NCBI RefSeq assembly: GCF_003334305.1
Contig: NZ_QOWS01000002.1
DNA: 64,000 bases
Strand: one strand, 5' to 3'
Source: Escherichia coli
GTDB lineage: Bacteria; Pseudomonadota; Gammaproteobacteria; Enterobacterales; Enterobacteriaceae
The notes below the pieces were generated by a model. It made no database searches. It saw only the letters and a program-made list of their open reading frames with translations, and had not been told where the DNA came from. The position numbers were made by a program, and so were the translations under genes. Each line of letters opens with the position of its first letter. The stretch's first letter is position 1. This document shows, piece after piece, positions 10,513 through 44,660 of the stretch.

Positions 10513-10734
10513 ATGAATACTCGCTGGCAACAGGCCGGGCAAAAGGTAAAGCCTGGTTTCAAATTAGCAGGCAAGCTGGTACTTCTTACCGCACTGCGCT
10601 ATGGCCCGGCGGGTGTGGCGGGCTGGGCGATAAAATCAGTTGCTCGCCGACCGCTGAAAATGTTGCTGGCTGTGGCGCTGGAACCGCTGTTAAGTCGGGC
10701 TGCTAATAAACTGGCACAGCGTTATAAAAGGTGA
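10513..10734 (+). CDS. pspD: phage shock protein D
   Basis: Track ORF 10501..10734 trimmed to ATG 10513 ([11 protein letters not shown]...) giving 73 aa. Confidence 0.88.
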
Positions 10735-31986: not shown

Positions 31987-32052
31987 TTATCCCAGATTAT
32001 TGGCAGCAATATGCCAGGCCATATCACTATTGCGGATTTGAATATGTTTCAT
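31987..32052 (-). CDS. ymjD: 21-codon ORF between ycjY and ymjC (ymjD-like)
   Basis: Reverse-strand ATG at 32050-32052 (overlapping the ycjY stop by 1 nt) through stop at 31987-31989, encoding MKHIQIRNSDMAWHIAANNLG; I recall a tiny annotated ymjD at this position in K-12 but cannot verify. Confidence 0.4.
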   Translation of the reverse strand: MKHIQIRNSDMAWHIAANNLG

Positions 32053-32972
32053 TACAGAGTTTCCTCAAAGAACGGAGCTAATACTGAAATTGCTTCAGCC
32101 ACATAGGCTTTGCCGTCATAAAGATCCATATGGTTTGCGCCTTCAACAATGTGATAGCGTTTATCCTGGCTTGATGCCCGATCGTACAGGTCGTCACTCA
32201 TCCATTTGCTCCCTGCCTGGCTGCCCGCCACAATCTGCATCGGCTGAGTCAGGTACACTTCCGCCATATGGTAAGCATCATAGGTAATAATCTGGTTAAG
32301 GCTGCGCAAAGTAGCGTAACCCGGTGCTGTTGGATACTGCGCGCGAGGGGTGTGGTAATACTCCCAGGCCTGACGCAGTTCTTCGTTCGGCGCATCGGAC
32401 TCCTTCATTGGTGCCAGTGGCATAACGGCATATTCTCCGCTGCTAATATCGCTGGTTCGGGCGTTTGAACCCGCTTCAACGTATGGCAGGGCATCAATAG
32501 ATTTCACATTGTTTTCCCAACCATTACGGAACATCGAACCAATATTGACCGCACTAACGGTACCGATGGCCTTGATGCGGCGATCCTGAATTGCAGCATT
32601 GGCTGTATATCCTGCACCGGCACAAATTCCCATCGCACCAATTCGGGTATTGTCGACATAAGAAAGCGTTGTCAGGTAATCAATCACGGCACTGATGTCT
32701 TCAGTACGAATGTATGGGTTTTCTAACTGACGCGGCTCGCCGCCACTTTCACCTTGATAAGATGCGTCATAAGCAATAGTGACAAATCCCTTTTCCGCCA
32801 GTTTTTTGGCATAGGTTCCGGCCGTTTGTTCTTTAACGCCCCCACCTGGGTGAGATACCACAATTGCCTGATACTGACGGGTTTCATCAAATTTTGGAGG
32901 GAAATAGATCACTGCAGACAAAGAGATGGTTGGATTATTGCTGTTAGTGAAGCTGACTTTATTATTCATCAT
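32052..32972 (-). CDS. ycjY: alpha/beta-hydrolase fold protein
   Basis: Track ORF 32052..32984; start tentatively at the ATG giving MMNNKVSF... (306 aa); serine-hydrolase nucleophile elbow GICAG. Start could be 12 nt further upstream. Confidence 0.85.
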   Translation of the reverse strand: MMNNKVSFTNSNNPTISLSAVIYFPPKFDETRQYQAIVVSHPGGGVKEQTAGTYAKKLAEKGFVTIAYDASYQGESGGEPRQLENPYIRTEDISAVIDYLTTLSYVDNTRIGAMGICAGAGYTANAAIQDRRIKAIGTVSAVNIGSMFRNGWENNVKSIDALPYVEAGSNARTSDISSGEYAVMPLAPMKESDAPNEELRQAWEYYHTPRAQYPTAPGYATLRSLNQIITYDAYHMAEVYLTQPMQIVAGSQAGSKWMSDDLYDRASSQDKRYHIVEGANHMDLYDGKAYVAEAISVLAPFFEETL

Positions 32973-33042
32973 TCCGTTCCTCATGGAGTTGTCGGTTCGT
33001 TTTAACGGTTGGTGATATCACTATAGATATTGATCATTAAGT

Positions 33043-33085
33043 TGATTAGACCCAAAATCATGATTAGACCTATCATTTAAATGAT
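33043..33085. promoter_or_regulatory. candidate PgrR (LysR-type) operator in the ycjY/pgrR divergent promoter
   Basis: Direct repeat TGATTAGACC at 33043-33052 and 33061-33070, followed by the perfect 14-bp palindrome ATCATTTAAATGAT at 33072-33085, 25 bp upstream of the pgrR ATG. Confidence 0.4.
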
Positions 33086-33109
33086 TAATAGATTGCATGG
33101 AGATACTGA

Positions 33110-34009
33110 ATGAAGCGTGAAGAAATCGCTGATCTGATGGCGTTTGTCGTCGTTGCAGAGGAGCGTAGCTTCACTCGTGCAGCAGCCCGCCTGAGCATGG
33201 CGCAGTCAGCTTTAAGCCAGATAGTGCGTCGTATAGAAGAACGATTGGGATTGCGGCTTCTGACGCGAACCACGCGCAGCGTTGTTCCAACTGAAGCGGG
33301 CGAGCATCTTTTGTCTGTTCTTGGCCCTATGTTGCATGACATAGATTCAGCCCTGGCATCCCTGAGCGAGCTGCAGAACCGCCCATCCGGGACAATACGT
33401 ATTACTACTGTAGAACATGCAGCAAAAACGATATTGTTACCAGCAATGCGCACATTCCTGAAATCGCATCCTGAAATTGATATTCAGCTCACCATTGATT
33501 ATGGTTTGACCGATGTCGTTTCTGAACGTTTTGATGCAGGCGTCCGTCTGGGTGGGGAGATGGATAAAGATATGATCGCCATTCGAATCGGGCCAGATAT
33601 ACCAATGGCTATTGTTGGCTCACCGGATTATTTTTCTCGCCGAAGTGTTCCAACGTCAGTGTCACAATTAATAGATCATCAGGCAATTAATTTGTATCTT
33701 CCCACATCGGGTACAGCAAATCGCTGGAGATTAATACGCGGTGGACGTGAAGTTCGTGTTCGCATGGAAGGTCAGCTTTTACTGAATACGATAGACCTGA
33801 TCATTGATGCTGCAATTGATGGGCATGGATTGGCGTATCTACCTTATGATCAGGTTGAGCGGGCTATTAAAGAAAAAAAACTGATACGTGTTTTGGATAA
33901 ATTCACACCAGATTTACCCGGTTATCACCTGTACTATCCACACCGTCGACATGCTGGCTCGGCATTCTCATTATTTATAGATAGGCTGAAGTATAAAGGT
34001 GCTGTTTAG
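33110..34009 (+). CDS. pgrR: LysR-family transcriptional regulator
   Basis: 299-aa ORF with N-terminal LysR HTH (FTRAAARLSMAQSALSQ). Confidence 0.9.
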   Translation: MKREEIADLMAFVVVAEERSFTRAAARLSMAQSALSQIVRRIEERLGLRLLTRTTRSVVPTEAGEHLLSVLGPMLHDIDSALASLSELQNRPSGTIRITTVEHAAKTILLPAMRTFLKSHPEIDIQLTIDYGLTDVVSERFDAGVRLGGEMDKDMIAIRIGPDIPMAIVGSPDYFSRRSVPTSVSQLIDHQAINLYLPTSGTANRWRLIRGGREVRVRMEGQLLLNTIDLIIDAAIDGHGLAYLPYDQVERAIKEKKLIRVLDKFTPDLPGYHLYYPHRRHAGSAFSLFIDRLKYKGAV

Positions 34010-34345
34010 CACTACTTGCTGATACATTAATTTAATTTCTCTCTTAACGTATTCTCAGTTCCTTTCAACGTTTTGGTTATTTTTTATTCTTCGTACAATG
34101 GCGACAGATGCTGATTATGATACCGAAAACTGGTTTGAACGTGCGAAGCCTGAACGTAGTGTTCGGTGTTCTATGTGCTTTACCGCATTTTGGCGTCGAT
34201 TATTTACACTAAATCTGATTTAATATATTGATACATAAAACATTTTATGCTTCCTGTGTCACTTTTTTGATGGAAGTTGTTTGCATTTCTTTAAGGCGAA
34301 ACAAATAATTACGCATCAATTTTAATGTCGGTTAGAGGGAAACTT

Positions 34346-35959
34346 ATGAAGCACTCTGTTTCAGTCACGTGTTGTGCGCTGTTGGTCAGCAGCATTTCTC
34401 TTTCGTATGCTGCAGAAGTTCCGAGCGGCACAGTACTGGCAGAGAAGCAGGAGCTGGTGCGCCACATTAAAGATGAGCCTGCGTCGCTGGATCCCGCTAA
34501 AGCCGTGGGCCTGCCAGAGATTCAGGTCATTCGCGATCTGTTTGAAGGACTGGTGAATCAGAACGAGAAAGGGGAGATTGTCCCCGGCGTTGCGACTCAG
34601 TGGAAAAGTAATGACAACCGTATCTGGACTTTTACCCTGCGCGATAACGCAAAATGGGCGGATGGCACACCGGTAACGGCGCAAGATTTTGTCTACAGCT
34701 GGCAACGTCTGGTGGACCCGAAAACTCTATCGCCATTTGCATGGTTTGCCGCGCTGGCGGGAATCAACAACGCACAGGCGATTATTGATGGTAAAGCTAC
34801 GCCTGACCAGCTTGGCGTCACCGCAGTTGATGCCCATACTTTGAAAATTCAGCTTGATAAACCGTTGCCGTGGTTTGTGAATTTAACCGCTAACTTTGCC
34901 TTCTTCCCGGTGCAAAAAGCCAACGTAGAAAGCGGTAAAGAGTGGACGAAACCCGGAAATCTGATTGGCAATGGCGCTTATGTTCTTAAAGAGCGCGTAG
35001 TCAATGAAAAACTGGTCGTGGTACCGAATACCCATTATTGGGATAACGCCAAAACGGTACTGCAAAAAGTGACCTTCCTGCCAATTAATCAGGAATCCGC
35101 AGCCACTAAGCGTTACCTCGCGGGGGATATTGATATCACCGAATCCTTCCCGAAAAATATGTATCAGAAGCTGTTGAAGGATATTCCGGGGCAGGTTTAT
35201 ACGCCGCCGCAGCTCGGGACCTATTATTATGCGTTTAACACGCAAAAAGGGCCGACGGCAGATCAGCGCGTTCGTCTGGCATTAAGTATGACGATAGATC
35301 GCCGCCTGATGACCGAAAAAGTATTAGGGACGGGCGAAAAGCCAGCGTGGCATTTTACACCAGATGTTACCGCCGGATTTACGCCGGAACCTTCGCCGTT
35401 TGAACAAATGAGTCAGGAAGAACTGAATGCGCAGGCAAAAACTTTGTTGAGCGCAGCTGGTTATGGTCCGCAAAAACCGCTGAAGCTGACGCTTTTGTAT
35501 AACACTTCAGAAAACCATCAAAAAATTGCGATTGCTGTAGCATCGATGTGGAAAAAGAACCTTGGCGTAGATGTTAAATTGCAAAATCAGGAATGGAAAA
35601 CCTATATCGATAGCCGTAACACCGGCAATTTTGATGTTATCCGCGCCTCATGGGTGGGGGATTATAATGAACCCTCCACTTTCCTGACATTATTAACGTC
35701 AACGCATTCAGGAAATATTTCACGCTTTAACAATCCGGCATATGACAAAGTTCTGGCCCAGGCATCGACGGAAAATACCGTTAAAGCGCGTAATGCCGAT
35801 TACAACGCGGCAGAAAAAATCCTCATGGAGCAAGCACCGATTGCACCAATTTATCAATATACCAATGGACGATTAATCAAACCGTGGCTGAAAGGTTATC
35901 CCATTAATAACCCTGAAGATGTGGCGTACAGTCGGACTATGTATATTGTGAAGCATTGA
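34346..35959 (+). CDS. mppA: periplasmic murein tripeptide-binding protein (OppA paralogue)
   Basis: Track ORF 34325..35959 trimmed to ATG 34346 (MKHSVSVTCCALLVSS...) giving 537 aa. Confidence 0.92.
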   Translation: MKHSVSVTCCALLVSSISLSYAAEVPSGTVLAEKQELVRHIKDEPASLDPAKAVGLPEIQVIRDLFEGLVNQNEKGEIVPGVATQWKSNDNRIWTFTLRDNAKWADGTPVTAQDFVYSWQRLVDPKTLSPFAWFAALAGINNAQAIIDGKATPDQLGVTAVDAHTLKIQLDKPLPWFVNLTANFAFFPVQKANVESGKEWTKPGNLIGNGAYVLKERVVNEKLVVVPNTHYWDNAKTVLQKVTFLPINQESAATKRYLAGDIDITESFPKNMYQKLLKDIPGQVYTPPQLGTYYYAFNTQKGPTADQRVRLALSMTIDRRLMTEKVLGTGEKPAWHFTPDVTAGFTPEPSPFEQMSQEELNAQAKTLLSAAGYGPQKPLKLTLLYNTSENHQKIAIAVASMWKKNLGVDVKLQNQEWKTYIDSRNTGNFDVIRASWVGDYNEPSTFLTLLTSTHSGNISRFNNPAYDKVLAQASTENTVKARNADYNAAEKILMEQAPIAPIYQYTNGRLIKPWLKGYPINNPEDVAYSRTMYIVKH

Positions 35960-36009
35960 TGTGATGGGAACTGGCGTTACCCTTGTGGATAACGCCAGTG
36001 ATGTCTGAT

Positions 36010-37041
36010 TTAGCGACCCTGTTCCGGCGGTGTAATGTTATCCATATACAGCGTCTGGCTGGGGAAGGCAAAGTCCGCGCCGTGTGACTGTACAATATCG
36101 ATAATCTTCAAATAAACGTCTTGCTGTGCAGCAAGCCATTCAGCCCATACCGTGGTTTTGGTAAAGCAATAAACCATAATATTCAATGACGAGTCGGCAA
36201 ACTGGTTGAAATAAACCAGTAAGGTTTGTCGCTGGTCGATGGCCGGGTGATTTTTCAGCATCTCACGTACGGCTTCGACAATAACGCCCACTTTTGCCGC
36301 ATCCTCATAACGTAAACCAATGGTCGTGGTAATGCGGCGGTTGGTCATTCGTCCTGGGTTTTCTACGCTGATCGACGAAAACAGCGAGTTCGGTACGTAC
36401 AATGGACGATTATCAAAGGTCGTAATTTTGGTAATTCGCCAGCCAATTTCCGCTACTGTACCTTCGATATTTCTGTCCGGTGAACGGATCCAGTCGCCAA
36501 TACTGAAAGGACGGTCGAAATAGAGCATGATCCCGGAAAAGAAATTACTCAGAATATCTTTACCGGCCATACCGACAGCCAGACCACCAATACCACCAAA
36601 GGTCAACAAGCCAGAAAGGCTCATGCCGAAATGTTCGCCATAAAGCAGAACAAGCACCACAATAATGGTGATTTTGATAATGCGCGACATAATCCGCGCA
36701 CTGGTGATATCGCGACCTTTTTTAATCTGCTGTTTTTCAAACTGATTAATCAGCAAAAATAGCTTAATCGTCAGAATAACCGCAATCAGGGACGTACAGA
36801 TAAAATCGATAACGCCTGGGGTGATAAATTTGAGTTTATAGTTTTCTATAACATAATTAATAATGCTACCAACAGCACTGATAATTATGGTGTAGATTAA
36901 AAATTGCACCGCATGGAATAAAAAACCTTTTCTTTTACGATTTCCGCGGCGAAACCAAAAGCTCATCAGAATCAATGCTGCGCAGCTACCGAAAATAATG
37001 ACCAGATTAAGCGCATTATTTGTAAACAGTTCAGCGATCAT
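36010..37041 (-). CDS. ynaI: MscS-family mechanosensitive channel
   Basis: 343-aa ORF with N-terminal transmembrane helices and MscS-like C-terminal domain. Confidence 0.9.
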
Positions 37042-37284
37042 TGTTTTATCAGGCTCCTCCAGATAATTGTCGTCATGCCGGAAACCCCTGGCGGGGCTAT
37101 TTTACCGCGACAATTCATTCAGATCATCAATAGTCAGGGAAGGAAGTAGCAATATTAGCTAACTAATCAATGCGTTGATTGTAAATCCAGCTAAGAGGTG
37201 AGGTTTTCAGAGCAGACAACGGTGAAATGTCATGGTATTGTTACGTTTAGGTAACAAGAAATTTGTCTGCACAAGGATTACATC

Positions 37285-37542
37285 ATGATTATGGCGAAAC
37301 TGAAGTCAGCGAAAGGGAAGAAATTTCTCTTTGGTTTGTTGGCGGTTTTCATTATTGCGGCGTCGGTTGTGACTCGCGCGACTATCGGCGGCGTTATAGA
37401 ACAGTACAATATTCCGCTGTCTGAGTGGACGACATCAATGTATGTGATTCAGTCATCGATGATTTTTGTTTATAGCCTGGTCTTTACTGTGTTGCTGGCA
37501 ATCCCGTTGGGAATTTATTTCCTTGGCGGCGAAGAGCAGTAA
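37285..37542 (+). CDS. ynaJ: small inner-membrane protein (DUF2534)
   Basis: 85-aa ORF with two hydrophobic segments. Confidence 0.85.
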   Translation: MIMAKLKSAKGKKFLFGLLAVFIIAASVVTRATIGGVIEQYNIPLSEWTTSMYVIQSSMIFVYSLVFTVLLAIPLGIYFLGGEEQ

Positions 37543-37551
37543 GTAAAAAAT

Positions 37552-37571
37552 AGGCCCGATAACTCGGGCCT
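37552..37571. terminator. bidirectional hairpin terminator between convergent ynaJ and uspE
   Basis: AGGCCCGATAACTCGGGCCT stem-loop flanked by an A-run upstream and a T-rich tract downstream. Confidence 0.6.
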
Positions 37572-37591
37572 TGTCAGTTATTGAAGAGTCG

Positions 37592-38542
37592 TTAATCGTC
37601 TTCTTCGTCATCCAGTTCAACGGGTGTCTGATACTGGTCAGGTTTAATGACCAACAGATCGCAGCGAAGATGATCAATCACCTGTTCCGCCGTGTTGCCG
37701 AGGAATGCTGCTGAAATACCGGTGCGTCCTACCGTGCCCAGAACCACAATCCCCGCCTGTAAGTGCTCCGCCAAATCAGGAATCACCTCTTCTGGCAGAC
37801 CTTTTTCTACGTGCGTCATGTTTTCATTAATGCCGAATTTCTGCCGCAGAGCTTTCATTGCCAGCAAATGTTGCCCACGAATGGCATCGTTATAAACGCT
37901 CGGATCAAATTCCGGCAGTTCAATCGCGATATTAATTGGCGTTACCGGATAAGCGCCAACCAGATGAACTTCGGTATGGTTGACTTGTTCTGCCAGTTCG
38001 ATCGTCTCTTTGACCAGTTTTTCATTGAGCGCATTATGATACGGCTCTTCACTGGCGAGATTCACCGCCACCAGCGCCTTGCCTCCTTCCGGCCACGGCT
38101 GGTCTTTCACCATCCACACCGGGCTTGGGCATTTGCGTAACAGATGCCAGTCCGTTGGCGTAAAAATCACCGCTTCCAGACGGTCATGTTGGTGCGCCAT
38201 TTTTAGCACCAAATCGTGCCCGCCGCTGATCACTTCCTGAATGATGGCTTCGAAAGGACGGTTATGCCAGACCACTTTAATTTCAATGGGAACGCCAGCA
38301 TTGAGATAATATTTTGCCTGCTCGTGGATCCAGGCTGTACGCTGGCTGATGACGCCCTGACGCATAGCCGTACGTTCGTCCGGGGAGAGCAGGGTGGTCA
38401 TTTCGTATGAGAAGTCATAGATCGGCAAAAAGGCTTTAATTTTGCCACCAATCCGTTGATGTAAATAAACAGCTCGCCGCAATGCTGGTTGGTCGTCCTG
38501 GTTAGGATCGATAACAACGAGCATGTTCTGATACATAGCCAT
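37592..38542 (-). CDS. uspE: universal stress protein E (tandem Usp domains)
   Basis: Track ORF 37592..38569 trimmed to the ATG at 38540-38542 ([17 protein letters not shown]...) giving 316 aa. Confidence 0.92.
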
Positions 38543-44485: not shown

Positions 44486-44660
44486 AACCTTTCCCGTCAT
44501 CAGTAAAAAGTGTGACCCGGTTCACGTAGCGATAGTTTTTACTTATCACTAACTGATTTTTCACAGTTTTAACCGTTCATAAATTACCCTGACACAATCA
44601 TCTGCATTAAAGTAGATGCCAGTTTCTTTGGTCTGATAAATAACGGTTATCGGTGGCGTC

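Follow-up and report, generated by a model that had tools for sequence, protein, structure and literature searches.

In Escherichia coli the divergent genes mpaA and mppA are held apart by an inserted cassette that carries the regulator gene pgrR, and the 37-bp direct repeat found at the two edges of this cassette is a duplication of the target into which it was inserted. The repeated unit is likely the common core of two back-to-back promoters, whose transcription starts would have lain ~70 bp apart in the ancestral layout, and we consider the explanation as a whole (target duplication of a shared promoter core, complementary decay of the two copies and recombination between them) a probable one. 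The analysis concerns a 64,000-nt stretch of E. coli DNA (the window), for which a first-pass annotation had pointed to a 30-bp repeat upstream of mppA and had offered promoter element, regulator site and recombination scar as possible roles; the first and the last of these both hold, together. Since a literature search returned no paper on this 37-bp duplication, it is probably previously unreported.

Target duplication in the mpaA-mppA spacer

A repeat finder identified a single outstanding direct pair within positions 29000-38000, at 31806-31847 and 34252-34293 (36 of 42 positions identical; 2446 bp from start to start). Its 30-nt core, TCACTTTTTTGNNGGAAGTTGTTTGCATTT, has exactly two exact matches in the window and any match in 0 of 100 dinucleotide shuffles of the window, which rules out a chance repeat. 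Comparison with single-copy relatives gives a duplicated unit of 37 bp, identical at 33 of 37 positions between the two copies in the window, and the repeat tool independently bounds the same 37 nt in strain NCTC9112; the 30-bp repeat noticed initially is real and is the well-matching core of this unit. The copy near mppA ends 57 nt upstream of the start codon, as had been noted, the ATG being at 34346. The features of the locus are as follows.

30989-31717, minus strand: mpaA coding sequence, murein tripeptide amidase, 88 nt from copy A
31806-31842, plus strand: copy A of the 37-bp core, TCTTGTATCACTTTTTTGCCGGAAGTTGTTTGCATTT
31843-34251: cassette in its K-12-type reduced form, with ymjC (SDR N-terminal remnant), the ymjD region, ycjY, pgrR and a queH remnant
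34252-34288, plus strand: copy B, the duplicated 37-bp putative promoter core, TCCTGTGTCACTTTTTTGATGGAAGTTGTTTGCATTT
34346-35959, plus strand: mppA coding sequence, murein tripeptide-binding protein

Over 5.2 kb the window is 100% identical to E. coli strain 2013C-3181, and 5,419 of 5,426 complete E. coli genomes have the locus. Its gene order in the window is ycjG(+), mpaA(-), the 60-codon ymjC remnant(-), ycjY(-), pgrR(+), mppA(+) and ynaI(-). Across these 5,419 genomes the element occurs at 10,656 places, with a median of two and a maximum of four per genome, indicating that it is locus-specific and not dispersed. This median, with both places at the locus, and the two matches in the 64-kb window rule out a dispersed intergenic repeat of the REP/BIME, ERIC or MITE type. 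A known RNA family (leader or sRNA) was likewise rejected, since no Rfam covariance model overlapped either copy at E <= 1 and the lone Rfam match was a sub-threshold RAGATH-10 inside pgrR.

The ancestral layout was reconstructed from 80 loci encoding MpaA relatives in other species, 78 of which have both genes. In 74 of these 78 loci, all from other Enterobacteriaceae, mppA and mpaA are uninterrupted divergent neighbors 138-233 bp apart, and the spacer measures exactly 182 bp in five non-coli Escherichia lineages, among them E. albertii and E. whittamii. Uninterrupted spacers hold a single copy of the element wherever it is recognizable, and that of Escherichia sp. MOD1-EC7003 has the same sequence as copy A. 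The copy A side of the E. coli locus matches the single-copy spacer from mpaA through GTTGTTTGCATTT (...GCATTT) and then passes into cassette DNA, while on the copy B side the match begins at TC.TGT.TCAC and extends as far as mppA. These two junction matches overlap by 37 bp, and because 88 + 37 + 57 = 182, no ancestral base was lost. The exact empty site, posed as a synthetic query, was matched end to end in 173 of the 5,419 E. coli genomes. From the match of both junctions to uninterrupted single-copy relatives it follows that the pair is a target duplication flanking an insertion, and it is in this form that the recombination scar proposed at first was borne out.

Such a pair resembles the attL and attR sites of islands and prophages, in which two pieces of the target flank the insert, recombination between them excises it precisely, and the interrupted target stays functional thanks to the duplicated piece, as with the tRNA 3' end at islands. 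It also resembles the target-site duplications of transposons and IS elements, in which host DNA is directly duplicated at both junctions and no host bases are lost. These likenesses, together with unrelated insertions in the same spacer of Salmonella arizonae and diarizonae and at one further locus (L058), would favor attL/attR-like sites or a transposon target duplication around a cassette that is, or was, a site-specific mobile element. Nevertheless, we regard this as highly improbable, because no integrase, transposase or terminal inverted repeat is present in any cassette form examined, the repeat exists at this locus only, and the other spacer insertions use different junctions without duplication. 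The cassette holds only an SDR gene, one or more hydrolase genes, a LysR-type regulator gene and a queH remnant; unlike at attL/attR, the target is not a tRNA gene, its sequence is unused at other sites, the function preserved would be that of a promoter pair, and excision apparently proceeds by ordinary short-homology recombination, with neither integrase nor excisionase. Transposon target duplications are typically 2-14 bp, a size that 37 bp far exceeds. The same lack of a transposase or integrase to account for a 37-bp duplication also counts against the explanation that we favor, target duplication of a shared promoter core.

The other spacer insertions differ from the E. coli cassette in their junctions, and no duplication was seen at them. 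Salmonella enterica subsp. arizonae and diarizonae (L025 and L026) carry independent insertions of 3.1-3.4 kb, in which the mppA-proximal promoter is replaced; their left junction falls inside the element (...ATCAACTTTCTGCCGGA/TACAG in L026). At L058, 9.2 kb is inserted to the left of the element.

Mapped and predicted promoter elements in the two copies

The promoter features assigned to the two copies are listed below; positional conservation was taken from an alignment of 68 single-copy spacers from 68 species.

31800, minus strand: published mpaA transcription start (PMC3415461, Table S1)
31807-31815, minus strand: extended -10 of the mpaA promoter, TGaTACAAG, at the left end of copy A
34263-34268, plus strand: T6 tract of copy B, at about -53 to -48 of the predicted mppA promoter, a presumed UP-element position
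34280-34286, plus strand: predicted mppA -35, TTTGCA (18-nt spacer) or TTGCAT (17-nt spacer), at the right end of copy B
34304-34309, plus strand: predicted mppA -10, AATAAT, within the conserved block GAAACAAATAATTAC (34298-34312)

For mpaA, a transcription start has been mapped at NC_000913.2 position 1388705 on the minus strand with 20 reads (Kim et al. 2012, PMC3415461, Table S1). The accompanying "-50 nt + TSS" string, AACTAATAAAATGCAAACAACTTCCGGCAAAAAAGTGATACAAGATCGATG (PMC3415461), is the exact reverse complement of window positions 31800-31850, placing the start at 31800. TGaTACAAG then occupies positions -15 to -7, and copy A spans -7 to -43, so that a TGn motif and a -10 hexamer are followed 7 nt downstream by a mapped start, as in an extended -10 promoter. 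The TGA of this motif (minus strand; TCA at element positions 8-10 on the plus strand) is invariant in the 68 species. On the evidence of this published start site, copy A is the working mpaA promoter.

Two blocks within the 83-nt mpaA 5' UTR, 31748-31761 (CAGTGTTGTGCAAA) and 31773-31779 (ATCAAAT), lie between this start and the ATG and are at least 95% conserved in the 68 species, exceeding even the promoter elements; candidate roles are those of an operator, an RNA element or a second promoter. Readings of GGAAGTT and of a TGGCAG..GC block near mpaA as sigma-E or sigma-54 sites were dropped, since by eye their spacing departs from the general consensus sequences of these sigma factors.

For mppA, a promoter scan returned TTTGCA-18-AATAAT at 34280-34309, with matches at 9 of 12 positions, or equivalently TTGCAT-17-AATAAT; the -35 hexamer, in either register, matches only three to four of the six consensus positions. 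Across the 68 species, TTGC (element positions 30-33) is invariant, GAAACAAATAAT and AAACAAATAAT are each ~100% conserved, the GAAACAAATAATTAC block is near-invariant, and TTGCA-N18-AATAAT is kept at the same spacing in 64 of 68. The TTT of the T-tract is 82-99% conserved, the O157 tract having a 1-nt deletion and a T>C change, and the conserved AAG (positions 23-25) and TTT (positions 13-15) are unexplained by promoter hexamers alone. Within E. coli, the 57 nt between copy B and the mppA ATG are identical in 12 of 12 strains, and 5,136 of 5,419 genomes have the mppA-proximal GGAAGTTGTTTGCATTTCTTTAAGGCGAAACA unaltered. Conservation and consensus thus predict an mppA promoter with a start at about 34315-34318. 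The initial placement of copy B in the promoter or 5' leader of mppA stands for the promoter and falls for the leader, because the right half of the copy carries the conserved -35 of this predicted promoter. The wider expectation that the whole element matters for mppA expression narrows in the same way; the gene-proximal part of copy B alone likely matters, the left half being a relic of the opposite-strand mpaA promoter.

Published transcript data bear on this prediction. The start-site table of PMC3415461 has no entry near 34316 and assigns a single start to mppA, at NC_000913.2 position 1390762, with 6 reads and a 489-nt leader (Kim et al. 2012, PMC3415461). That position corresponds to ~33857 of the window on the plus strand, inside pgrR, and could represent an internal promoter or noise. 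Neither mppA nor mpaA is among the genes in the SMRT-Cappable-seq supplements, and the main text of the RpoD-holoenzyme SELEX study lists the ycjY/pgrR spacer and has no entry for mppA or mpaA (PMC3946193). The missing SELEX entry and the missing proximal start suggest that the mppA promoter may be weak or activator-dependent. They would also fit a neutral scar in copy B, with mppA transcribed by read-through from pgrR or from an internal start such as the only one mapped, and with TTGCA...AATAAT otherwise employed. However, only 6 reads support the start inside pgrR, and 74 of the 78 related loci have no pgrR upstream, such that mppA must there start within the ~180-bp spacer; the retention of TTGCA-N18-AATAAT and the invariant 57 nt to the ATG also speak against it. 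Because most species have only this spacer upstream of mppA, we find a neutral scar distinctly unlikely and retain the predicted promoter. A CRP site labeled ycjZ/mppA in ChIP-seq data (CGTGAACCGGGTCACA, PMC4287617, Table 1) was set aside, as it maps to 44511-44526 on the minus strand, ~10 kb from mppA; the homologue label seems to mean paralogous genes.

An operator for PgrR or another recycling regulator, co-regulating mpaA and mppA and needed in both copies, would be suggested by the placement of the two genes in the same pathway with pgrR between the copies, and by the repression of the ycjY-ymjDC-mpaA operon by PgrR described in PMC5934670 and PMC9928106. The AAG and TTT conserved in mid-element beyond the hexamers, and an ATCA-N6-TGAT dyad that the derived GAT of copy B creates, point the same way. 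Yet the element is conserved in more than 60 species that lack pgrR at the locus, its best-conserved positions coincide with the extended -10 and the -35 at canonical spacing, and positions 19-20 are the most polymorphic in E. coli. In addition, the PgrR SELEX targets reported in PMC5934670 are the ycjY/ycjZ spacer and other loci, and include neither the mppA upstream region nor ymjC. The regulator-site option of the first-pass annotation is therefore left without support, and we judge an operator unlikely.

Comparison of the copies in 12 E. coli strains and Escherichia sp. E1V33 revealed asymmetric polymorphism. Positions 1-11 of copy A, which contain the mpaA extended -10, are invariant, and its TTTGCA has become TTTGTA (C>T) in 5 of the 12 strains, at a site invariant in 68 species; a junction-specific probe found TTTGTA in at least 942 genomes, and TTTGCA at this type of junction in at least 1,409. 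In all 13 copy B sequences, the base that would be T(-12) of the mpaA -10 is altered (A>G). Conservation, in each copy, of the half turned toward its own gene and change in the other half fit complementary relaxation of selection, from few independent mutations. Not all differences at the left end of copy B are decay after the duplication, since positions 3 and 5 match a polymorphism in outgroups such as the Escherichia lineage E69.

The history that we propose begins with an ancestor in which mpaA and mppA would have been divergent, ~182 bp apart, with the ~70 bp between their starts covered in part by a 37-bp unit comprising the mpaA extended -10 (minus strand, left) and the mppA -35 and T-tract (plus strand, right). 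In the E. coli lineage, an SDR gene, one or two alpha/beta hydrolase genes including ycjY, the LysR-type regulator gene pgrR and a queH fragment would have entered this spacer in an event that cleanly duplicated exactly the 37 bp, allowing mpaA and mppA each to keep a complete core promoter. Copy A would have remained the working mpaA promoter while its mppA-type -35 decays, and copy B would serve mppA through its right part, the TTTGCAT -35 placed 17-18 nt before AATAAT with a predicted start near 34316, its left part being the decaying relic of the mpaA -10. Being direct repeats, the copies would also recombine, by gene conversion and by precise excision that restores the ancestral spacer.

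Cassette forms and recombination between the copies

The cassette ranges from 2.4 to 4.0 kb in E. coli. Its 3953-bp form in NCTC9112 encodes an SDR oxidoreductase, two alpha/beta hydrolases and PgrR and ends in a queH fragment; O157 and O145 carry this type with the second hydrolase broken, and the 3074-bp form of EC958 lacks the second hydrolase. In the 2409-bp K-12-type form of the window a further 665 bp is deleted, leaving 46 SDR codons. An argument for foreign origin from the GC content of the cassette (0.40-0.52) was dropped, this range being insufficiently distinctive.

The K-12-type deletion, seen in at least 2,288 genomes as well as in Escherichia sp. E1V33, begins at the cassette edge, a single base beyond copy A (31842-31845; 1445-2109 of locus L001). 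Its junction, GCATTTT/ATTAGTTGG, leaves the SDR gene reduced to the 60-codon ymjC ORF and creates a promoter-like match on the minus strand (TCACA.. -16- TAAAAT, 31866-31839). The position of the breakpoint at the element edge might reflect selection for a fusion of mpaA to the ycjY operon that leaves the mpaA promoter in place. Between pgrR and copy B, positions 34107-34181 encode in a plus-strand frame a short internal fragment of the epoxyqueuosine reductase QueH (...DADYDTENWFERAKPERSVRCSMCF...), which PGAP annotates in O157, O145 and NCTC9112. To our knowledge E. coli is otherwise without queH, and the cassette was therefore probably cut from a donor genome in which pgrR adjoined queH.

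Decay of the cassette was seen in many E. coli lineages (L002, L090, L091, L094, L096 and L099). A frameshift or an internal stop disrupts the second hydrolase gene of O157 and O145, ETEC4067 has an IS1 beside the SDR gene and an internal stop in pgrR, ycjY is frameshifted in FJ_Ec_21, and in MS1657 and EC28, whose SDR truncation is of another kind, a deletion fuses ycjY' to 'pgrR. In O145 RM12522-C8, mppA itself is frameshifted.

Traces of recombination between the copies appear in genomes with and without the cassette. Three of eight fetched empty-site loci have a single copy that is A-type on the left and carries the B-specific GAT. The same combination is found in copy A of the cassette-bearing strains O145, ETEC4067 and EC332, indicating gene conversion between the copies. 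Since cassette-bearing strains share the combination, chimerism by itself does not prove excision, and an initial reading of every such copy as an excision product was wrong, the same 32-mer being present in their copy A. Strain CP131_Sichuan lacks the cassette and has an A/B chimeric copy, and its flanks differ from K-12 at 0 of 1,017 and 0 of 1,517 positions; the chimera and the K-12-identical flanks together place a crossover within TCACTTTTTTG. This is a precise excision of the cassette and the sole clean case that we claim.

Recombination between lineages is apparent in Escherichia sp. E1V33 (L006; window 31750-34000), whose cassette interior is 96-99% identical to E. coli, in contrast to 79-93% for the flanks and ~90% for the segment with the queH remnant. 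Its copy B retains the ancestral GCC and has the same boundaries as that of E. coli. This mosaic indicates that the E1V33 lineage has long carried the cassette, parts of which recombination has overwritten, and it points to a recent recombinational import that included the K-12-type SDR deletion.

These exchanges raise another origin for the pair, in which a circular or linear donor fragment already bearing a diverged version of the 37 bp integrated by Campbell-type recombination at short homology, the left-end differences of copy B being donor-derived. Excision between A and B demonstrably occurs and would yield circles, copy B agrees at positions 3 and 5 with other Escherichia lineages such as E69, and the E1V33 interior attests that homologous recombination has moved the cassette between lineages. 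Such a fragment, however, would account for the spread of the cassette and not for its first insertion; the cassette-side similarity to the spacer stops at 37 bp, and E1V33 and E. coli share the boundaries of copy B. A donor fragment is accordingly rather unlikely as the source of the duplication, for which we continue to favor insertion into a single ancestral core.

Relation to known systems and significance for peptidoglycan recycling

The pair is a new instance of known phenomena, and its parts are ordinary sigma-70 promoter elements and not a new class of element. Like other back-to-back divergent sigma-70 promoters, the two predicted for the ancestral spacer have outward-facing cores with starts ~70 bp apart and common upstream DNA, one with an extended -10 (TGn) and the other with a -35 and -10 at 17-18 nt spacing; they differ in that the core has been split and duplicated, so that 2.4-4 kb now separates the promoters, and each retains a vestige of the other's element. 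The closest evolutionary concept is duplication-degeneration-complementation, acting on a 37-bp promoter core. As in that model, each copy keeps the sub-function of its neighboring gene while its other part changes (C>T in TTGCA in copy A; A>G at -12 in copy B), whereas the unit here is a promoter core and not a gene with modular enhancers, the mutations are few, and gene conversion partly erases the pattern.

A more speculative proposal, to which we give little credence at present, is that the duplicated core makes the pgrR cassette a reversible plug-in, that E. coli toggles between PgrR-controlled and ancestral regulation, and that the repeat pair has been selected for this reason. If so, neither gain of the cassette by flanking homologous recombination nor its loss by recombination between A and B would ever disable mpaA or mppA, and toggling would affect the uptake and degradation of murein peptides.

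More directly, the results explain a conspicuous repeat in a well-studied region of the E. coli chromosome, and they indicate that pgrR, whose product regulates the recycling of peptidoglycan peptides, came in on a cassette whose insertion split the divergent promoter region of mpaA and mppA. The cassette is polymorphic, with three or more decaying forms, and in part of the ~3% of genomes without it the loss was a precise excision. Both promoter assignments are testable, that of the mapped extended -10 promoter of mpaA to copy A and that of the predicted -35/-10 promoter of mppA to copy B, and they should be useful for reading the regulation of mppA and mpaA and the differences among strains in peptidoglycan recycling.
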